DNA of 64,000 nt from Patescibacteria group bacterium (GCA_040388415.1 JAZKBV010000003.1:47571-111570), one strand, 5' to 3'; shown: positions 6,391 to 51,111, counted from the first letter of the stretch. The notes: generated by a model from the letters alone, not told the origin. Translations and numbers: made by a program.

Positions 6391-7785
6391 ATGCTCCATA
6401 CTGAAAGGCTCGTTGTGAATAAAAAACTAGAAGAAGCAGTCAAGTTCCTTGCGCAATTCAACCAAGTGGTAATGCATAAATCCCCGCACTTGGATGAAAT
6501 CGTGGCATATTATCTCCTCAAGGTATACGGCATGCTCAAGGCGAGTGTTCGCTTTGTTGATGCTGACATTACCGGGACAGAAGCTGATCATGATCGTAAT
6601 TGTGTCCTACCAATCGGTTGTGGTGACAATTGTCGCTTCAATGAGCATCGCAAAGGTATCGAGCGACTCAAGGGTGAATGCGCAACGACTCTCGCTGCAA
6701 AATTCCTTGGGATTAACGAACTACCGGAAGTAAAACGCCTCATCGCTGAAGTCCTTAAGTGCGACACCGAAGCAGGTTGCATGCCGACGCAGTTGGCTGA
6801 GTTGGTCAAGGTTGCCAATCGTTCTATGCCGGGAAATTATCTTGGCGTTCTGACATGGGTGACGACTGCTCTCAAGGCAATCATTCACAATGAGCAATAT
6901 CACTTCACGGCTCTTCCCGGCGAGAAATCTCTGGTGGATCTTTTGAAGGCGATGGATGCTGAAGGTAAATACTTCAGCGAGGATTCACGGATCCGTGAGC
7001 ACCTCTTCCGGATATCGCATGACAGTTTGCGCCGTTCGGACAAATGCATAACGGAACTCGCGTCAATATTGCAGGCCATGCATCGTTTGCCCTACAAGGC
7101 AGAGGATATCAGCACTTGGCTCGAGACTCCGCTCTTGCAGATTACTTCAGACCAGCTCCAGTTTTGGCAGCTGGTTGACCTGTATAAAAAGCAGGAAATC
7201 ATTCCGGTGCGCGCGATGGATAACCGTGGCGAATACGAGCTCAAGCTCATGGTCATCGAAAGCGATGATCTGCAAGCGCCTCGTGCAGCTCGGTTTACTG
7301 GTGCAGATATCGTTCTTTGCCGCACTTCGAAGGGTAACGTGATGATCTCTGTTGACACGCGAATCCCCGACCTCAATCTCTCCAACGTGGTCCGCATGAT
7401 ACGTTGGATGGATTTACCTAAGAAGATCACGAATGAGCCGAGTTGGCTTGACTTAGGTGTTCCTGGTGCGCACGACTTGCATTGTTTGGCGCATTGGTAT
7501 TACTTCAAGAAGGGAGAGCAGATCTTCAACGGAAGCCAGACACATTCTGCTCCGCCGACCAAGATACCTACGGAGGCGCTGGTGGAGGCCATCAAGTATG
7601 GTTTGCATCCGCACTATGTCAAAATGTGGTGCAATGATCGGCGCATCGTCATGAACCCGAAACGCTTGGCTGAGGCGATGCAACACAGAAAGCAATCATC
7701 GGAGAAGCCGGCCGGCGACATGGGATTGAAGATTGATCTTCAGCCGAAAAATCGGGCGGCGACTAATGTCGTTGCTGTAGCGTAA
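6391..7785 (+). CDS. Hypothetical protein; N-terminal HxxxHxDE motif reminiscent of MYG1/UPF0160 metal-dependent hydrolases
   Basis: 464 aa; MHKSPHLDEIVAYYLL near N-terminus; no other recognisable motif. Confidence 0.3.
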   Translation: MLHTERLVVNKKLEEAVKFLAQFNQVVMHKSPHLDEIVAYYLLKVYGMLKASVRFVDADITGTEADHDRNCVLPIGCGDNCRFNEHRKGIERLKGECATTLAAKFLGINELPEVKRLIAEVLKCDTEAGCMPTQLAELVKVANRSMPGNYLGVLTWVTTALKAIIHNEQYHFTALPGEKSLVDLLKAMDAEGKYFSEDSRIREHLFRISHDSLRRSDKCITELASILQAMHRLPYKAEDISTWLETPLLQITSDQLQFWQLVDLYKKQEIIPVRAMDNRGEYELKLMVIESDDLQAPRAARFTGADIVLCRTSKGNVMISVDTRIPDLNLSNVVRMIRWMDLPKKITNEPSWLDLGVPGAHDLHCLAHWYYFKKGEQIFNGSQTHSAPPTKIPTEALVEAIKYGLHPHYVKMWCNDRRIVMNPKRLAEAMQHRKQSSEKPAGDMGLKIDLQPKNRAATNVVAVA

Positions 7786-7870: not shown

Positions 7871-9220
7871 ATGCTCTATACTATCTCTATGAATACCCGA
7901 ACCTATTTCCAAGGAAAGCGCATCGCAGTCATAGGTCTGGGTCCGCACGGGGAAATGGTTGATGATGTGAAATTTCTCATAAAAGCAGATGCACTCGTCT
8001 CAGTGTATGATCTCCGTAGCGAAGCACGTCTCAAAAACCATATCATATTTCTTCGCTCAGTCGGCCTGGCGAACTATGTATGCAGCTCTATTCCGCCCGA
8101 TGATTTGCTCGATATGGATCTCATCATCTTGTCGCACGAGTATCCTCGCGATTCGTCCTTTCTCAAAGGCGCTCGTGAAAAGGGTATACAGATCGAATAC
8201 CCCGAAACTCTCTTTTTTCGTCTTGCGCCACCAGTGACAGTTGTCGGCGTCATGGGCGCATATGGCAAAGCCACGGTCGTCTCAGTGCTTGCGCCACTGT
8301 TGGAGATGGCCTGCGAAGCTGATGGCACTCAGGATATGTTCACGCTCGACCCGGAGTCCGGAGACGGTATCCTTATCGCATTGAAAAAGATAAAGAGCGG
8401 AGACATAGCACTCATACGCGTGATCGAATCTATGATGCCGGAACTTTATGAGATGCGCGTCAGCCCGCATGTCGCTATCTTTACGAGCGTTCCGCCGAAG
8501 GGCTCCTACACGACCTCGCCATTTGAGATACTAACCTATCAGACATATAACAATTTTATCATTGCGAGTGATGAGGTCATCGATGCTATCCATCGTTTCA
8601 AATTTCAGCCGAAGGCAAAGATGTTGCGTACGAAATCATCTATCATTCCGGCTTCGTGGTCGCTAGGCATTGAGAATGTAGGTCTTTGGAATCATGATCG
8701 CGATAATGCGGCGCTCGCTCTTCAGGCTGCGCAATTATTCAAGGTTCCTGATGAGGTTTCAGAGTCGCTTATGGAAAAATGGAAGCCGCTCAAAGGCAGG
8801 CTTGAATTCGTCAAAAAGGTAAAGAATATCGAATTTTATAATGATACTGCATCCGTTTCGCCCGGCTCTACGATCGTCGGCGTCCGTTGTTTGAATAAAG
8901 ATCGCAATCTCATTCTCATACTCGGTGGCGTTGATGCTGGCCAGGATTATAGAGAGTTGTATGCCGTATTACCGGTATGTGCTCATACAGTTATTTTGTT
9001 GCCTGGCAGCGGCACAATGAAAGAGCGTAAAACGTTGAATACGATTGATAATGTTACTGTTCTTTCAGCGCCAGATATCCAAGAAGCTGTCAGGCTTGCT
9101 CGTGACAATGCACGCCAAGGCGATCGAGTACTTTTCAGTCCAGGTTTTGCGGCTGGTGGACTTGAATCTTCACGCAAAGAGAGAGGAGAAGCGTTCGTGA
9201 GAGCAGTGAGGACGCTCTAA
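7871..9220 (+). CDS. Mur ligase family, MurD-like (UDP-MurNAc-L-Ala:D-Glu ligase-like) with divergent nucleotide-binding loop
   Basis: MurD-like N-terminal Rossmann (KRIAVIGLGPHG), central GAYGKAT in place of canonical G[ST]NGK[ST]T, C-terminal domain FYNDTAS / ILILGG. Confidence 0.55.
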   Translation: MLYTISMNTRTYFQGKRIAVIGLGPHGEMVDDVKFLIKADALVSVYDLRSEARLKNHIIFLRSVGLANYVCSSIPPDDLLDMDLIILSHEYPRDSSFLKGAREKGIQIEYPETLFFRLAPPVTVVGVMGAYGKATVVSVLAPLLEMACEADGTQDMFTLDPESGDGILIALKKIKSGDIALIRVIESMMPELYEMRVSPHVAIFTSVPPKGSYTTSPFEILTYQTYNNFIIASDEVIDAIHRFKFQPKAKMLRTKSSIIPASWSLGIENVGLWNHDRDNAALALQAAQLFKVPDEVSESLMEKWKPLKGRLEFVKKVKNIEFYNDTASVSPGSTIVGVRCLNKDRNLILILGGVDAGQDYRELYAVLPVCAHTVILLPGSGTMKERKTLNTIDNVTVLSAPDIQEAVRLARDNARQGDRVLFSPGFAAGGLESSRKERGEAFVRAVRTL

Positions 9221-9236
9221 GAAAATCGACTTAATT

Positions 9237-10118
9237 TTATTCGCCGCAAATAAGACAAACAACTGGCCCTTCAATTTTATGTCCTGCATACACTGCTTGC
9301 ATAGCGCCGACAACAGACAGTGCGCTGTTAGTTGAAATATCTAACCCGGTGTGTTTTTCGGTGAGCAGTTGAGCTGTCTCGATGTTTTCATTGGTTGCGA
9401 ACCAGCCATACCCGCCTGTCTTTTGAATGAGCGGGGTTAAGTCATTTTTTCTGTACGCTGTAATATCAGTGATTGCATCAGCGACCGAAGGCTCATCTGG
9501 CCCATCGTAGCTATTCAACCCATCAGAGAGCGGATGACATGAAGATGTTTGTATAATGTGTATCTGAGGAATCTTTGTGGCAGAATTATTTAAAAAATAT
9601 GTCGCCAATGCTTGAGCTGTCGTACCAGATGAGGTACCGATGAATATAGCACCGAGATTTTTGATCTGGCCAAGCTCTTCCGCGAGCGACTCATATCCTT
9701 TGAGAGCGAGGTTGTCGGTTGATTGGCGTAGACTGCGCATGCCATCATTCATCGCTTGAGTGAGTGCTTGGAGAGGGCGTTCTTTCTTGAGGATGCGGAT
9801 ATAGTCGTCGGCGTATGCGAGCAATTTTTGATATTTATGTTCAGCGACATGGTTTCCGACAAAAATATCTAATTCTAACAATGAATCTTTTTTCTCTTTG
9901 TTGAGTTTTTGGATATGGATAGCTGCAGCGAGCGCAGCATTTCCTGATGAAGAGATGGCAAAGCGGCTTTCTCCCTGATTGCGATACACTTCGATCATGA
10001 CTGGTATAGATCTGCCTTTATGTGAGCCATAGGGGCTCAAGTCTTCACGCTTGAAGTAAAGGTTGGTGACGCCAATGGCCGCTGCAAGGTCGCTATATTG
10101 TTCGAGGGGAGTCTGCAT
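9237..10118 (-). CDS. PLP-dependent fold-type-II enzyme, ACC deaminase/D-cysteine desulfhydrase-like
   Basis: LYFKREDLSPYGSHKGRS lysine motif, glycine-rich GTSSGTTAQ loop; 293 aa. Confidence 0.5.
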   Translation of the reverse strand: MQTPLEQYSDLAAAIGVTNLYFKREDLSPYGSHKGRSIPVMIEVYRNQGESRFAISSSGNAALAAAIHIQKLNKEKKDSLLELDIFVGNHVAEHKYQKLLAYADDYIRILKKERPLQALTQAMNDGMRSLRQSTDNLALKGYESLAEELGQIKNLGAIFIGTSSGTTAQALATYFLNNSATKIPQIHIIQTSSCHPLSDGLNSYDGPDEPSVADAITDITAYRKNDLTPLIQKTGGYGWFATNENIETAQLLTEKHTGLDISTNSALSVVGAMQAVYAGHKIEGPVVCLICGE

Positions 10119-10196
10119 GAAAGTATTGTCATACTATCGCATTTCAAGTACTATGGAAAGACAGCCTCGAATACATGAAGCTGCGATTTATTATCT

Positions 10197-10394
10197 ATGA
10201 TTCATCAAAACCTTAAAACCATGAATGCTAAACTTGTATGTCCAGAATGTAAAAATGACGTCGACCTATCGCGCTACCCAAACCTCGTCGTCGGTATGGT
10301 TGTCGAGTGTAACCACTGCGGTATGACGCTTGCTATCAAAGAGATCGCCGACAATGGCGAGGTCAAGGCAGATATCGTAGATGAGGGTAAATAA
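10197..10394 (+). CDS. LysW-like zinc-ribbon small protein (probable start at M9, nt 10221)
   Basis: CPECKNDVDL...PNLVVGMVVECNHCGMTLAI parallels LysW CPECGAELxLxNPELGExVxCxDCGAELEV, acidic C-terminal tail but ends DEGK, not the canonical terminal Glu. Confidence 0.4.
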   Translation: MIHQNLKTMNAKLVCPECKNDVDLSRYPNLVVGMVVECNHCGMTLAIKEIADNGEVKADIVDEGK

Positions 10395-10408: not shown

Positions 10409-11812
10409 TTAGCGGAGCTTATTGACTGTTTCCTCGATCATTCCTCTGAAGCCGTGTGACCCAAGAAAGACGATGCAGTCGTCTTTTTTTGTTTCTGCGA
10501 TGAGGAAGTTAACCAAAGCGGCGTCGTCTTCAAAGTACTTTACATTTTTGTGCGTTTGTTCGATCGTTTGAACCAGATCCGTGCCTTCCATAGGTTTAGC
10601 TGAATCGTCCTCGGGCACTTTGAGTTTTGTGAGACGGGGAATGACAACGACGTCAGCATCTTTAAAAGCATTGTCATATTTGTGGGCAGTTTCGTACTGA
10701 CGTCCACCGATGTTCGGTTCATATACTGCGATAATGTTGCTCTTGTACACTTCTCGGACGCTTTCGAGGACCGAGGTCGCTTTTTCGGCAGTCGGCGCAT
10801 GGCAGTCGAGGAGAGTAACGTCTCCTTCAAATCTTTTTTCAAAGCGGCGTTTGATGCCTTTGAAGTCTTTGATGGCATCGATGATCTTGTCTGTAGGTAT
10901 GCCGACTTCGTGCGCCATGGCAAAAGCAGCAGTTATATTTTCCACATTGAAACGTCCAAGCATTGGTGAATGAATTTCATAGCAGGCATCTTTTGATGTG
11001 ATCTGAAAATGAAGGCCATTTTTCGTGTAGGCGATAGAGTGATATGAATAGTCTGCAGATTCGTTTTTGCCGTAGGTGACGGCTTTTTTTCCCGTAGCCT
11101 CAAGAGTTTTTTTGACGCCATTTTCATCGATACATGCAACGATGAGACCGTCATCTGGAATGCCGGCAACTAATCTTTCAAATGTATCGAAGTAGTCCTT
11201 TTCCGTAGGATAAAGATCAGCATGGTCCCATGAGACAGAAGTGAGAAGGAGATAGGTAGGAGCATAGTACACGAACTTTGGACGGCGGTCTGAGATAGAG
11301 ACTTGGTACTCATCACCCTCGACGACGCTCCAATCAGAATCAGAAAGCGCGCCCGTAGGATGTGAAAGCGAAAGTCCACCGGTAAAATAACTTGGTGTGC
11401 GACCGCTACTGATCATGATAAATGAAAGAAGGGCGGATGCTGTCGTCTTGCCCCATGTGCCAGCAACCACGATTGAATTCTTTTTTATAAAGTATTTCTG
11501 AAGGACTTCGGCATATGAGAATGCAGGGATATTATGTTCTTGTGCGTATAGCGTTTCAGGATTAGAAGGGCTTGTACCGGTGCCACCGATCATGACGAAG
11601 TCAGGCGGTACGTTTCCGTTTGGACAGATGTTCTCAGGGTGCCAGCCAGCATAGTATTCGACGCCCGCATCTTTGAGGTATGTTGAAACAGGAGGAAAGA
11701 AACCCTTATCTGATCCAGTTACTTTGACGCCGGCTTTATGAAAAGCGATAGCGAGCGCGCTGGTTGCTACGCCGCAGATACCGATGACGTGGACGTGTTT
11801 AGGAAGATTCAT
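10409..11812 (-). CDS. Mur ligase, MurC/Mpl family (UDP-N-acetylmuramate:amino acid/peptide ligase)
   Basis: N-terminal HVHVIGICGVATSALAIAFHKAGVKVTGSDKGFFPPVSTYL (Mpl/MurC-type), P-loop VAGTWGKTT, 467 aa. Confidence 0.75.
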   Translation of the reverse strand: MNLPKHVHVIGICGVATSALAIAFHKAGVKVTGSDKGFFPPVSTYLKDAGVEYYAGWHPENICPNGNVPPDFVMIGGTGTSPSNPETLYAQEHNIPAFSYAEVLQKYFIKKNSIVVAGTWGKTTASALLSFIMISSGRTPSYFTGGLSLSHPTGALSDSDWSVVEGDEYQVSISDRRPKFVYYAPTYLLLTSVSWDHADLYPTEKDYFDTFERLVAGIPDDGLIVACIDENGVKKTLEATGKKAVTYGKNESADYSYHSIAYTKNGLHFQITSKDACYEIHSPMLGRFNVENITAAFAMAHEVGIPTDKIIDAIKDFKGIKRRFEKRFEGDVTLLDCHAPTAEKATSVLESVREVYKSNIIAVYEPNIGGRQYETAHKYDNAFKDADVVVIPRLTKLKVPEDDSAKPMEGTDLVQTIEQTHKNVKYFEDDAALVNFLIAETKKDDCIVFLGSHGFRGMIEETVNKLR

Positions 11813-11835: not shown

Positions 11836-12513
11836 TTATTTCTTCACGAGTATTTTCTTCACTTCTTCAAGATCATCTGACCACTTTGTGCCATCGAACC
11901 ACTCAAGTCCAGCAAATTGGAGCTTGTAGGTATCTGTTGGGCGCTGGAGGGAACCGAGATAGACATATTTTTTAACTGTACCTTTCGCGTGGCTGATAGC
12001 CATGGTCATCATTCCCATGCCCATATCTTTTGGCGACATGTCGATATGATAAAACGGATATGAGTAATGTAGAATGTTTTTATTTTCATAACATATAGCG
12101 TAGCCAAGATTCTCCGCATCTTTTGAATATATGAAAAGGTTTGTGAAGTTGCTCTTGTTGGCATCCGTCAGCATCTCTTTTATCTTTTGCGCGCTCATGA
12201 TGCCTGGTCCGAACTTTTTCTCATAGAAATATTTCGCATCCATAGCCAACTTGTAATTGTAGTCTTTCAAAGGCACTTCAGTCGATTTGAGACTGAGTTC
12301 TTTATCAGTTGCGCCGACCTTCTTCAAAATCCTTTTATTTTCACTCGATAGCTCGAATTTACTCAAATCGATGCGCACGCTTCTTGTCTGGTGCATAACT
12401 CCTTTGCCGATGCGTGTAAAGACATAGCCCTGATCGTACATATCAGAGATATTCTTATCTGAAAAGTCAGTGATTATTTTTTCATTCCAGTGAAGGTATT
12501 CCATATAAACCAA
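11836..12513 (-). CDS. Aminoacyl-tRNA--protein transferase-like protein (Bpt/ATE_C-like, GNAT fold)
   Basis: C-terminal KYVYLGS...YKLQFAGLEWFDGTKW resembles Bpt/ATE1 C-terminal motif KYLYLGYWI..M.YK..F.P.E.L..G.W; 225 aa. Confidence 0.4.
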   Translation of the reverse strand: MVYMEYLHWNEKIITDFSDKNISDMYDQGYVFTRIGKGVMHQTRSVRIDLSKFELSSENKRILKKVGATDKELSLKSTEVPLKDYNYKLAMDAKYFYEKKFGPGIMSAQKIKEMLTDANKSNFTNLFIYSKDAENLGYAICYENKNILHYSYPFYHIDMSPKDMGMGMMTMAISHAKGTVKKYVYLGSLQRPTDTYKLQFAGLEWFDGTKWSDDLEEVKKILVKK

Positions 12514-13684: not shown

Positions 13685-14464
13685 TTAGGAGAAGATGTGC
13701 AGGCGTCGAAGCGAGGTGAGTGATTTTTGTGCACGGGCATATATACGGTTCATTGGGCCCGTAGTGCCACCTTCGGTCCAAACTTGTTCAGTGATCGGTT
13801 TTTCTGGATTAAGTATCTCGACGACGCCTTGCTTGATGCCGCTTCCGTATATGCCATCTTCAGGATACGCGACTGCATGCGCATAGTGTATTTTTGCTGG
13901 AGTGAAGTTTTGATATTCAATCTGATATATGACAAGCACATGATCGCGATCTGTGCCATCAGGTCCGCCGATCATAGTAATGATATCTCCAGGTTGAGCT
14001 TCTTTGATCTCGATTGTTCTACTGTTTTTCTCATGAGCAAATGTTGCGACGTCACAATTCTCGATAGGGCGGAGAGCGCAGCGTACTTTACCGATCAATC
14101 CGGTGCAGTTAATGAAATGTATATGTTTGTCGAGCGATCCTTTTTTTAATTCTTGGGATTCAGTATTCAATACATAGTAAGCAAATGCTGAACAGTCGAT
14201 ACCTATGTTGTTATCAGTGAGTGTTTTTTTGAGGAGCTCATTTGTGACTGCCGACTGATCAGCATGATCTTTGAGCATGATGCTCTTTATCTCCTCGAAT
14301 ATTTCTTGCGGGCTACCTTTGCCTATAGTGCTTCGGAGGGCGGCGCGTGCTCGCGTCGTCTTGTTGTTGAAATAAGGTATAGAGCAAACCGCTCCGCCAA
14401 TAGTAAAATGGAGATATTGGTCGATGACAGATAAGGCTCGGTTTGAGAGTGTCTTGGTATTCAT
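13685..14464 (-). CDS. Putative papain-fold cysteine hydrolase (NlpC/P60-CHAP-like)
   Basis: GIDCSAFAYYVL (Cys motif) and GDIITMIGG...DHVLVIY (His motif) in correct order; 259 aa. Confidence 0.35.
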   Translation of the reverse strand: MNTKTLSNRALSVIDQYLHFTIGGAVCSIPYFNNKTTRARAALRSTIGKGSPQEIFEEIKSIMLKDHADQSAVTNELLKKTLTDNNIGIDCSAFAYYVLNTESQELKKGSLDKHIHFINCTGLIGKVRCALRPIENCDVATFAHEKNSRTIEIKEAQPGDIITMIGGPDGTDRDHVLVIYQIEYQNFTPAKIHYAHAVAYPEDGIYGSGIKQGVVEILNPEKPITEQVWTEGGTTGPMNRIYARAQKSLTSLRRLHIFS

Positions 14465-14479
14465 ATGTGGATTATATCA

Positions 14480-15730
14480 CTACTGACTGCTCATCACGTC
14501 GACGATCTCTTTTCCTCGCTTGTTGAATCTACCATGAGTCTCCATGATGCCAAGCATGCTCTGGATACGGAGAAGATCAGTATTCTCATCAATATTAGGG
14601 TAAAGAATAGTCTGATGTCCAAGCTTGGCAAGAGCTTGTAACTGTTTATCAGAAATACTTTGTGTGATGCGGGTCACGCGCTGGATGATCTGTGAGCCGT
14701 CGTTTATCGGAATGATGCGCTCTTCTCCTTTCTCCTTTCTCCTTTCTTCTAATGCGCCAAGGTGCGCCTCAAATATAGTCTGACCATCGACGCCGAGCTC
14801 ACGATTCTTCTGTTGCAACTGCGACTCATATGTCGTTGATGCTGGCTGGCGCGCATTGATCTCGATCAAGAATATCTTGTTCAATTCATCGTCGCGCATA
14901 ACATCGATGCCGAAGAGGCCTCTCCAACCGTCAGTCTGTAGTTTGCCTGCTACATCGGTAGCCATGGCTTCTATGACGCCGATCTCATCTTCATTCAATA
15001 GGGAATGGGTGAGCGACCAGTCGTTACCTATTGTGGTGAACAGATTTTCGGTGAATGGGGGAATACCAGTGATCTGGTAGCTGATATTGCCGAGAAATAT
15101 ATTTTTTTCACTGACTACGACATTGAGTGTGAACGAAGGGCCGTGCACATATGAACTGACGCGCGCAAGTCTTTCAGGAAATTTTTCTTGCACAGCTTTG
15201 AGTTCATCGGCTGAATTGACCAATGTGGTACCGAGACCCGTATGGCTATGGGCCCATTGAATGATTAACGGCTTCTTATTCCACATGATATCTTTGGCTA
15301 TGGTAAGCGAATGAGCAGGGAGGTATTTTTCACCGAGTGCGCCAAGATATTCTACTTGGGTCATTTTATTTTCGATCTTTTCTGCGAGCATGCTTGAGGG
15401 GTTCAACAAGTTCCAGTTATTTTTTTTGCAGATTTCTTCTATCTGAGGTGTATTTTTGAATACAAGAATCGAGATATTATTTACAGCGATATTTTTAATG
15501 AATGAATGGACAGCCTCATGGTTGAGCAACTCGCGCGTATCCAAAAGCTCGCCATCTTTTTGCGTTGTTTCTATCAAATGAATAAAGTCAGGATAGATTT
15601 TTTTGACTGATTCCGCATACGCAGTCTTATTCGCCATGATTTGATAGCCTGCATGTGGCTGTGCGCCTAAAGCGCGTTCAATATCGCGTGTGACGTAGAG
15701 TGCAACAGGGGTTTCGGATGATTTTGCCAT
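14480..15730 (-). CDS. ATP-grasp domain ligase with N-terminal extra domain
   Basis: C-terminal GWRGLFGIDVM...KIFLIEINARQ ATP-grasp signature; 416 aa. Confidence 0.6.
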   Translation of the reverse strand: MAKSSETPVALYVTRDIERALGAQPHAGYQIMANKTAYAESVKKIYPDFIHLIETTQKDGELLDTRELLNHEAVHSFIKNIAVNNISILVFKNTPQIEEICKKNNWNLLNPSSMLAEKIENKMTQVEYLGALGEKYLPAHSLTIAKDIMWNKKPLIIQWAHSHTGLGTTLVNSADELKAVQEKFPERLARVSSYVHGPSFTLNVVVSEKNIFLGNISYQITGIPPFTENLFTTIGNDWSLTHSLLNEDEIGVIEAMATDVAGKLQTDGWRGLFGIDVMRDDELNKIFLIEINARQPASTTYESQLQQKNRELGVDGQTIFEAHLGALEERRKEKGEERIIPINDGSQIIQRVTRITQSISDKQLQALAKLGHQTILYPNIDENTDLLRIQSMLGIMETHGRFNKRGKEIVDVMSSQ

Positions 15731-45502: not shown

Positions 45503-46597
45503 ATGATTATTCAAGAAAATATATCTCTAGCTCAATATACGACATTCAAGATCGGCGGTTCAGCTCGATTTTTTTGTTTAGTGACGGGCATAGATGAATT
45601 AAAGGAAGCAGTCAAGTTCGCAAAAGAAAAAAACGTACCTTTCTTTGTCCTTGGTGGAGGGTCAAATGTGCTCATCTCAGATGAAGGATTCCATGGCCTG
45701 GTCATAAAGATGGAGATAAAGGGGAAAGTTAAAAGGCAAAAGTTAAAAGGCAAAAATGAAAGTCAAAAGAGTGAAAATATAGAACTTGAGATTGTTTCTG
45801 CTGGCGCAGGAGAAATGTGGGATGATTTTGTCGAATGGACACTTGCTAACGGTTTCAATGGATTGGAAAATCTTTCAGCTATTCCTGGCACTGTCGGCGC
45901 TGCGCCTGTGCAGAATATCGGCGCGTATGGAGCAGAGATCGGACAGTTTGTTTCGAGTGTTCATGCATTTGATACTCATACGATGAAAGAGATTGAATTG
46001 AATGCTCGTGACTGTCATTTCGGTTACAGAAACAGCTTGTTCAAACACGAAAAGGGAAGATATATTGTCACTTGCGTTGATTTTTCTTTGAAGAAAGATG
46101 GGAAGGTGAATGTTGAGTACAGGGATTTGAAGGAGTATTTTAATAAGTTACAAGTGACAAGTGGACCCAGTGGCGAATCTGCTGATTCGAAGGTACAAGA
46201 AATCACACCATCGCAGGTTCGTGAGGCAGTGATTGATATTCGTTGGCATAAATTGCCTGATTGGAATAAGTGGGGCACTGCAGGATCGTTTTTCAAAAAC
46301 CCTGTGGTCACACAAGAAAAGTTTGATGAGTTGAAAGTTAAGTACCCAGCGATGCCGAGCTTCCCCGAGGCTAGTGGCGGCGTCAAAATACCGCTTGGTT
46401 GGATACTCGATAATGTGTGTCATCTCAAAGGCGTTATGACTGGCGGTGTAGGCACCTATGAAAAGCAGGCACTGGTCATCGTCACCAAGCCAGGAGCTAA
46501 AGCAAAAGAGGTAGTCGATTTTACGCATGATTTGATGAAGCAAGTGAAGGACGCGACCGGGATTACGATCGAAGCTGAGGTGGAATGGGTGAATTAG
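45503..46597 (+). CDS. murB: UDP-N-acetylenolpyruvoylglucosamine reductase
   Basis: FAD-binding FKIGGSARFF, VLGGGSNVL; C-terminal MurB domain; contains short Lys-rich tandem-repeat insertion. Confidence 0.9.
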   Translation: MIIQENISLAQYTTFKIGGSARFFCLVTGIDELKEAVKFAKEKNVPFFVLGGGSNVLISDEGFHGLVIKMEIKGKVKRQKLKGKNESQKSENIELEIVSAGAGEMWDDFVEWTLANGFNGLENLSAIPGTVGAAPVQNIGAYGAEIGQFVSSVHAFDTHTMKEIELNARDCHFGYRNSLFKHEKGRYIVTCVDFSLKKDGKVNVEYRDLKEYFNKLQVTSGPSGESADSKVQEITPSQVREAVIDIRWHKLPDWNKWGTAGSFFKNPVVTQEKFDELKVKYPAMPSFPEASGGVKIPLGWILDNVCHLKGVMTGGVGTYEKQALVIVTKPGAKAKEVVDFTHDLMKQVKDATGITIEAEVEWVN

Positions 46598-50899: not shown

Positions 50900-51111
50900 T
50901 GAAAAAGAAAATAGAAAAATTGAAGGGCACGCTTTCCGTCGAACATCTGCATCATTTTCGTTGCGGTGCATGCGACAAGTGGTGGTCAATCGGTGATCCT
51001 TCTATCGCTTTGCCAGGCAAACAGTCGGCCACGAAAAGAGAATGGTTTTGTCCTTGGTGTGGAGAGAAGAATATCTTTGGTGATGGAACGGAGATTAAGA
51101 GGGAGTTTTAG
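50899..51111 (+). CDS. Small zinc-ribbon protein (CxxC...CxxC), hypothetical
   Basis: FRCGACDKWW ... FCPWCGEK; TAATG overlap with upstream. Confidence 0.4.
   Translation: MKKKIEKLKGTLSVEHLHHFRCGACDKWWSIGDPSIALPGKQSATKREWFCPWCGEKNIFGDGTEIKREF

Follow-up and report, generated by a model that had tools for sequence, protein, structure and literature searches.

Zinc ribbons of the LysW fold that invariably end in lysine: a Patescibacteria family encoded near an ATP-grasp ligase, a ThrC-like PLP enzyme and an NlpC/P60-like protein as a candidate carrier system

LysW-type carriers are known from lysine and arginine biosynthesis, where LysX, LysZ, LysY, LysJ and LysK provide the carrier-pathway functions (PMC12998189). 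Full-text literature searches returned no paper that connects LysW-like proteins with Patescibacteria/CPR or with peptidoglycan, and no description of the four-gene system analysed here was found in the literature searched. LysW masks the amino group of its substrate on a terminal glutamate. Its tail, flexible and about 10 residues long, ends in EDWGE, and the γ-carboxyl group of the last Glu carries the substrate. To our knowledge such carriers also serve in a small number of Streptomyces pathways, and the terminal Glu is the reactive residue in every case. CysO is another small carrier with a reactive C-terminus; it is a β-grasp protein ending in Gly-Gly which is thiocarboxylated by an E1-like enzyme, and it works with the fold-type-II PLP enzyme CysM, a hydrolase freeing the amino-acid product. 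BtrI of the butirosin pathway is a phosphopantetheinyl ACP with thioester chemistry.

The window, i.e. the whole 64,000-nucleotide stretch of Patescibacteria DNA analysed here, carries a short ORF in which a first-pass annotation had seen two CxxC knuckles and a VDEGK end. The ORF call returned it as described (Table 1). It starts with ATG and encodes a protein of 65 aa, MIHQNLKTMNAKLVCPECKNDVDLSRYPNLVVGMVVECNHCGMTLAIKEIADNGEVKADIVDEGK, in which VDEGK is followed by TAA. A search of 5.8 billion proteins retrieved 492 homologues at E<=0.01, and the ORF is thus a genuine gene and not a chance reading frame. Among the 120 matches listed of these 492, lengths are 55-65 aa and identities 62-100%; the named homologues are all from Patescibacteria (Taylorbacteria, Paceibacterota and others). 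A second Met could serve as an internal start. The first eight residues are conserved at the protein level also where a homologue lacks this Met (e.g. P0027 and P0054), and therefore the 65-aa form is probably the true start. The product is a small, acidic, cytoplasmic zinc ribbon with four cysteines, with a pI of 4.6 as against about 4.05 for LysW.

Table 1. Positions of the zinc-ribbon gene, its parts and its neighbours in the window, and of the additional methyltransferase gene in five other loci.
Feature	Position	Strand	Remarks
Zinc-ribbon gene	10197-10394	+	65 aa, stop codon included; ORF call and 492 homologues
Alternative internal start	10221	+	would give 57 aa
First zinc knuckle, C15-P-E-C18	10239-10250	+	CPECKN invariant in the window's clade (alignment columns, regex scan)
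Second zinc knuckle, C38-N-H-C41	10308-10319	+	followed by invariant G-M-T-L (alignment, regex scan)
C-terminal tail, I60-V-D-E-G-K65	10374-10391	+	terminal Lys invariant, E63 nearly so
Divergent intergenic region, PLP-enzyme gene/zinc-ribbon gene	10119-10196		78 bp
Sigma-70-like site in the 78-bp divergent gap	10126-10154	+	predicted; consensus match only
Terminator-like hairpin and T-run	10463-10489	+	pattern match only; 70 nt past the zinc-ribbon stop, within the 3' end of the MurC-like gene
ThrC-like fold-type-II PLP enzyme	9237-10118	-	293 aa; Pfam PALP 110 bits; closest conserved neighbour of the ribbon gene
NlpC/P60-like Cys/His enzyme	13685-14464	-	259 aa; PF00877 NLPC_P60 22.8 bits against a cutoff of 23
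ATP-grasp amide ligase	14480-15730	-	416 aa; Pfam ATP-grasp_3; orthologues linked to the ribbon/PLP pair in all distant loci
MurD-like ligase	7871-9220	+	130 bits against an NCBIfam equivalog cutoff of 212
MurC-like Mur ligase	10409-11812	-	convergent with the ribbon gene, 14-nt gap; context, not core module
ATE/GNAT gene, arginyl/leucyl-tRNA-protein-transferase-like	11836-12513	-	225 aa; between the MurC-like and MraY genes
About 170-aa MTase gene	L082:4496-5008		
About 170-aa MTase gene	L084:4549-5076		
About 170-aa MTase gene	L086:4545-5054		
About 170-aa MTase gene	L097:3640-4146		
About 170-aa MTase gene	L099:2787-3293		

The relationship of the protein to LysW was assessed by profile, alignment and fold comparisons. 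LysW models were its top NCBIfam matches, the ribbon alone aligning (NF041070, 26.3 bits against a cutoff of 75; TIGR01206, 14.3 against 53.2), and PF21344 (LysW) was its best Pfam match at a sub-threshold 24.2 against 27. Most close homologues among the matches listed carry a precomputed PF21344 match, and distant members of the family, from Dojkabacteria and other Patescibacteria, pass the PF21344 cutoff with 35-45 bits. A profile search of 1.84 billion representative proteins provided 68 relatives, and the use of distant members 538 more. With hhalign, the window's clade was aligned to a distant clade ending in EEEK over the full length, tail included (99.4%, E 5e-22). Against Thermus LysW the globular domain only was aligned, both for the window's clade (86%, E 5e-6) and for the distant EEEK clade (96.5%, E 8e-10), and in both the match ends before the tail. 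The Thermus LysW sequence used in these comparisons agrees over its residues 4-34 with the 3wwl alignment. The AF2 model of the zinc-ribbon protein (pLDDT 79) had LysW as its top structural match in two fold searches; the first six Foldseek matches were LysW chains (target-normalised TM-score 0.65-0.85), and ribosomal chains ranked below LysW in both searches.

The first-pass annotation had left open whether this is a divergent carrier protein related to LysW or an unrelated zinc ribbon, and had proposed TIGR01206 and the LysW Pfam model to distinguish the two. TIGR01206 falls far short of its cutoff; the Pfam model narrowly misses the window's protein and is reached at the level of the distant family. 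The HMM ranking and the hhalign probabilities tie the globular domain to LysW, so that an unrelated ribbon is rejected, while a LysW-type globular domain is upheld by the HMM, hhalign and fold searches alike. On sequence comparison, then, the zinc-ribbon protein is a homologue of the LysW globular domain. The spacing of the knuckles, said to match that of LysW/ArgW, proved to be similar and not identical, since the inter-knuckle spacer has 19 residues against 16 in Thermus LysW and the alignments open a 3-residue gap. One relative of 103 aa (P0299) has two LysW-like ribbons in tandem, ends in LIEEEK and scores 81 bits with PF21344 over two stretches. Four profile matches that seemed to be fusion proteins (P0268, P0276, P0279 and P0291) look like repeats, frameshifts or chimeras and were set aside as uninformative.

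In public databases members of the family are called 'hypothetical', LysW, RPC12/RpoP, L37AE/L43A, S27E, Elf1 and, in one case, 'sulfonate ABC transporter'. A zinc ribbon of the translation or transcription machinery (S27e, L37ae or RpoP-like), or a DNA-binding regulator of the divergent operon, could be read from the JGI names RPC12/RpoP, L37AE and S27E, from the best PDB phmmer match, which is to S27e (E=0.006), and from a gene arrangement resembling regulator-operon pairs. Membership in a ribosomal or other zinc-ribbon family, the outcome that had been named as speaking against LysW, was however not found: the protein scored far below the NCBIfam cutoffs for S27e (18.3 against 70), L37ae (16.3 against 87) and RpoP (16.4 against 72). 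The ribosomal chains rank below LysW structurally, the gene lies among PLP-enzyme, ATP-grasp and murein genes, and the acidity of the protein argues against DNA or RNA binding. We know of no bacteria that use S27e or L37ae. A role of this kind is considered extremely unlikely. None of the labels RPC12/RpoP, L37AE/L43A, S27E, Elf1, LysW or 'sulfonate ABC transporter' is supported by the comparisons made here, and LysW, RpoP, L37ae and S27e can be corrected for the members of the family.

The C-terminal tail sets the family apart. All 279 full-length members end in Lys and none (0/279) in Glu, and the stop codon always follows directly after the Lys. Position -2 is Glu in 271/279 (E63 in the window's protein, 97%), position -3 is Asp or Glu in 272/279 and position -1 is Gly or Glu in 271/279, giving the consensus [IV][IV][DE]E[GE]K; IVDEGK is typical of the window's clade, I[IV]EEEK of most other members. 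The lack of a terminal Glu that had been noted in the window's protein thus holds for all 279 members. Judged by these alignments, the proteins form a Patescibacteria-wide family distinct from LysW, with a tail ending in an invariant lysine as its hallmark. In the AF2 model about 3-4 residues extend past the last β-strand.

The genes next to the ribbon gene were compared in 80 genome loci of close relatives, 78 of which have upstream sequence and 47 at least 8 kb downstream. A gene for a ThrC-like PLP enzyme is divergently adjacent to the ribbon gene in 77/78 (the exception is L076), and the pair stays intact in L032 despite inverted flanks and in L020, which lacks MurC. Genes for an ATP-grasp enzyme and an NlpC-like protein were present in 44/47. 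As general synteny is shared, the close loci are weak evidence alone. In the deep lineages, where the partner enzymes are only 23-36% identical to those of the window, all four genes were found within about 6 kb in each of the 11 loci with enough flank (L081, L082, L083, L084, L086, L088, L090, L097, L098, L099 and L100). The usual layout there is the ribbon gene on the plus strand, followed on the minus strand by the PLP-enzyme gene, the ATP-grasp gene and a gene of 260 aa. The ATP-grasp has 449-528 aa in these loci, and the orthologue of the window's NlpC-like protein about 250-280 aa. At L097 the ribbon and ATP-grasp genes lie on one strand, the stop codon of the former abutting the start of the latter. 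The NlpC/P60-like gene adjoins the ATP-grasp gene in 53/59 loci. The divergent PLP-ribbon pair was seen in six short contigs as well, and 7 loci from a metagenome scan with one family alignment fit the linkage pattern.

In three of the deep loci (L084, L097, L099) hrcA/grpE/dnaK adjoin the module and the called neighbours include no Mur ligase, MraY or Fem gene, which indicates that the core consists of four genes. In the other loci the module is surrounded by mraY, Mur ligases, murG, ftsW and FemAB/ATE-like genes. The ribbon, PLP-enzyme, ATP-grasp and NlpC/P60-like genes thus make up a core with a frequent cell-wall neighbourhood. In the window it is split, the PLP and ribbon genes lying at 9237-10394 and the 259-aa and ATP-grasp genes at 13685-15730, with the MurC-like, ATE-like and MraY genes in between. 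The remark in the first-pass annotation that an ATP-grasp enzyme is encoded nearby was therefore meaningful, the gene being 4.1 kb away and travelling with the ribbon gene across deep lineages; the closest partner, the divergent ThrC-like PLP gene, and the NlpC/P60-like gene had been missed. Five distant lineages have an additional gene of about 170 aa, absent from the window, between the PLP and ATP-grasp genes. Its product consists of an N-terminal hydrophobic helix (membrane anchor) and a SAM methyltransferase, and in the two loci scanned (L097, L099) its best NCBIfam match was archaeal protein-lysine N-methyltransferase (54-62 bits, below cutoff). A methyltransferase of this likeness within the module fits a chemically relevant protein lysine.

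Mur ligase genes flank the pair on both sides in the window. The convergent one had been called Mpl-like. The convergence was confirmed, and the gene scored better with MurC (255 bits, TIGR01082, cutoff 335) than with Mpl (197 bits), both being below cutoff. MurC was rejected as a functional partner, as it is adjacent only in some lineages, L032 has inverted flanks and no Mur ligase is adjacent in L020, L081, L084, L097 and L099. The scores of the MurC-like protein and of the MurD-like one (Table 1), both well under the NCBIfam equivalog cutoffs, suggest divergent Mur ligases in this lineage. The ATE-like gene probably encodes an aminoacyl-tRNA-dependent murein side-chain transferase; in L088 and L100 the ribbon gene has such a neighbour, and in L083 FemAB takes a comparable position. 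Upstream of the MurD-like gene, an ORF of 464 aa (6391-7785, plus strand) has no Pfam or NCBIfam match and is kept in only a few related loci. Farther away, positions 20973-45236 hold glycosyltransferase, sugar-nucleotide, methyltransferase, flippase and O-antigen-ligase-like genes, resembling a surface polysaccharide cluster, and MurB follows this block at 45503-46597. A second CxxC...CxxC zinc-ribbon-like ORF segment (RCGACDKWW...FCPWCGEKN) is located at 50962-51060 (plus strand), just upstream of an Obg GTPase gene.

The PLP enzyme was compared with solved structures and family models. Its profile matched ThrC best in the PDB (2zsj, 1e-27), followed by Asp/Ser racemases and Ser/Thr dehydratases. 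K34 in GSxKxR, the PLP lysine, is invariant, as are the loops SSSGNA and SSGT. With the best ThrC model it scored 47.7 bits against a cutoff of 421; the equivalog cutoff is missed though ThrC is the closest solved family, and the enzyme is therefore described as ThrC-like and not as ThrC. In the window's clade it is without the ThrC-type N-terminal segment of about 25 aa (MSIW...QLTL.EGNTP), which distant orthologues (L081-L100) keep. The window's enzyme matches several ThrC models from about their position 60-80 onwards, and for this reason the ribbon was also considered as an N-terminal domain split off from an archaeal-type threonine synthase. This was rejected, as the distant PLP orthologues have a Cys-free ThrC N-terminus (MSIW...EGNTP) in addition to a separate ribbon gene.

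The 259-aa protein resembles the NlpC/P60 family. G-x-D-C-S (D90-C91-S92) and H175 are invariant in the alignment and H196 nearly so, the GxDCSGF motif matches LytE, and an extra conserved N-terminal domain of about 85 aa is present. Its single-sequence AF2 model has a pLDDT of 33, too low for the model to be used.

The ATP-grasp orthologues matched PRK06524 with 60-130 bits, most of the model being spanned in 4/5, and gave weak matches to MfnD (1e-11), LdmS, BesA, PylC and RimK_fam. The likeness to MfnD, LdmS, BesA and PylC points weakly to a ligase joining an amino-acid carboxylate to an amine. LysX was not among the PDB profile matches, which were weak and generic, and RimK-family matches of the linked ATP-grasp were weak or faint, unlike what is expected of a LysX/ArgX partner. 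ATP-grasp enzymes that extend acidic C-termini exist, as with RimK and S6. The zinc-ribbon protein, whose tail is acidic, might likewise be the end substrate of a modification of the RimK/S6 or tubulin-tyrosine-ligase kind, the ATP-grasp adding residues and the NlpC/P60-like protein trimming them; the ATP-grasp profile weakly matches tubulin-tyrosine ligase and the orthologues weakly match RimK-family models. This appears quite unlikely, since the strictly co-inherited PLP enzyme is left unexplained, the ATP-grasp is outside the RimK family by score and no further functional surface or domain can be recognised in the protein. ATP-grasp macrocyclases exist too, and with Glu and Lys close to each other in the tail and an 'ATP-grasp peptide ligase' (8ynd) among the weak PDB matches, the protein could be a ribosomally made, graspetide-like peptide precursor in which a Lys-Glu side-chain lactam is made. 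Such a precursor is very unlikely: the family is housekeeping-like, single-copy, highly conserved across the superphylum and fixed among cell-wall genes, the protein is a folded zinc domain and not of leader/core layout, and PLP and NlpC/P60 partners are atypical of graspetide clusters.

The set of partners also bears on whether the protein is a genuine LysW/ArgW of α-aminoadipate lysine or arginine biosynthesis. LysW models are its best HMM matches, and some EEEK-type members are labelled 'lysine biosynthesis protein LysW' by JGI and NCBI. Pfam scans of all large ORFs in the 64-kb window, however, found no RimK/LysX, amino-acid kinase, semialdehyde dehydrogenase, class-III aminotransferase or M20 hydrolase, and LysX/Z/Y/J/K functions were not found next to the module in the distant loci, where one M20-type peptidase gene (L098) is about 3 kb outside. 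The LysX/LysZ/LysY-like set that a LysW-type carrier would lead one to look for is thus missing both from the window and from the neighbourhood of the module in related loci. Together with the TIGR01206 and NF041070 scores and the terminal Lys, this leads to rejection of a canonical LysW/ArgW so far as sequence can tell, its chance being very small.

A LysW fold with an invariant terminus, a carboxylate-amine ligase, a PLP enzyme and a papain-like amidase or transferase fit a carrier cycle. It is tentatively proposed, at somewhat short of an even chance, that the zinc-ribbon protein is the carrier or scaffold of a four-protein load-modify-release pathway; it would be a candidate carrier of the AmCP fold in which both the terminus and the enzyme set are new. 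The comparisons show the fold and its homology, the conserved tail, the linked genes and the conserved catalytic residues; covalent loading, attachment site, cargo and step order are inferred. In this cycle the ATP-grasp ligase would spend ATP on joining an amino-acid-type substrate to the ribbon tail through an amide bond. The ThrC-like PLP enzyme would next transform the tethered amino acid. The NlpC/P60-like Cys/His enzyme would then cleave or transfer the product, and the carrier would be regenerated. The product is likely to be destined for a cell-wall peptide, because the module is usually found among mur, mraY and fem-like genes.

Some features count against the carrier reading. The ATP-grasp could be a ligase of free substrates, e.g. 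a Ddl analogue, and fold-type-II PLP enzymes normally bind free α-amino acids with a free carboxylate. Small divergent genes are often regulators. The shortness of the tail in the model may keep it from reaching into an active site. The protein may instead be a non-covalent accessory or regulatory subunit (structural, allosteric or for assembly) of the PLP enzyme, the ATP-grasp or both, with the tail as a docking peptide. That the PLP gene is the most tightly and constantly linked one, transcribed divergently at a distance of about 60-100 bp, and that the modelled tail is short and partly inside a β-hairpin, would suit such a subunit. A free terminal Lys in 279/279, however, suits a reactive or recognised terminus better than an interface. 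All characterised relatives of the fold are covalent carriers, and a load-and-release cycle would call for just such an ATP-grasp and amidase as are linked here. An accessory subunit is thus regarded as possible, yet doubtful.

Within the carrier proposal, the site of attachment was considered. Attachment at an internal Glu, as had been suggested for a carrier without the terminal Glu, is possible at E63; the invariant terminal Lys is no weaker a candidate. Possible groups are the ε-amine of Lys65 as acceptor, the α-carboxylate of Lys65 as donor and the γ-carboxylate of Glu63 as donor. The terminal Lys is slightly preferred, because it is the sole fully invariant residue of the tail, because a cargo tethered by its carboxyl group would leave free the α-amine needed by a fold-type-II PLP enzyme, and because five lineages insert a lysine-methyltransferase-like MTase.

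A more specific form of the carrier proposal is a LysW relative of reverse polarity, in which the amino acid is tethered via its carboxylate to the ε-amine of Lys65 for the protein-templated synthesis of a Patescibacteria-specific cell-wall building block; this is judged unlikely as it stands. The ATP-grasp would join carboxylate to lysine, as PylC or D-aspartate ligase do, and the free α-amino group left over would be available to the ThrC/racemase-like PLP enzyme. In the PLP step Glu or Asp could be inverted from L to D in an ATP-driven manner, or a β/γ-replacement could take place. The NlpC/P60-type (γ-D-glutamyl-type) amidase would free the product for MurD or for cross-bridge synthesis. 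By way of speculation, Lys65 would be γ-glutamylated, the PLP enzyme would epimerise the residue and γ-D-glutamyl release would supply MurD, a scheme consistent with the chemistries of the families and with the adjacent MurD-like gene.

What stands out is a LysW fold whose terminal Lys is invariant, together with an enzyme set of another kind that is conserved across Patescibacteria and tied to murein genes. If the carrier system is true, carrier-protein amino-acid chemistry would gain a new attachment logic, a conserved 'hypothetical' gene block of the most reduced bacteria would be explained, and a lineage-specific step of cell-wall synthesis in Patescibacteria would be exposed.

Among known systems, the pearlin scaffold peptides, on which 3-thia-α-amino acids are made (PMC9303977), are comparable in that a small ribosomal peptide bears the growing amino-acid-derived products at its C-terminus until they are cut off, and the window, L088 and L100 have an ATE-like gene close to the module; they differ in the use of PEARL (LanB-like) enzymes and unstructured peptides, and in Patescibacteria the ATE-like gene is outside the four-gene core. 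Butirosin BtrI/BtrJ/BtrK, BesA and MfnD share an ATP-grasp ligase and a PLP enzyme acting on a tethered or masked amino acid. BesA and MfnD are, however, γ-glutamyl 'protecting group' ligases using free glutamate and not a protein, and their similarity to the window's enzyme is weak. CysO-CysM follows the same plan of carrier, fold-type-II PLP enzyme and hydrolase as the proposed Patescibacteria pathway, whereas the Patescibacteria carrier is a zinc ribbon ending in Lys, and an ATP-grasp is found instead of an E1-like gene. Closest are LysW/ArgW of Thermus, Sulfolobus and Thermococcus, with which the proteins share the size class (54-65 aa), the four-Cys zinc-ribbon fold, sequence homology over this fold, acidity, a conserved C-terminus and a genetic link to an ATP-grasp ligase. 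In Patescibacteria, by contrast, the tail is much shorter and ends in Lys ([DE]E[GE]K), the knuckle spacer has mostly 17-19 residues against 16, the ATP-grasp is PRK06524-like (416-528 aa) and not LysX/RimK, and ThrC-like PLP and NlpC/P60-like enzymes replace LysZ/Y/J/K (PMC12998189). The lysine-ended family is restricted to Patescibacteria, where it is found among murein genes.
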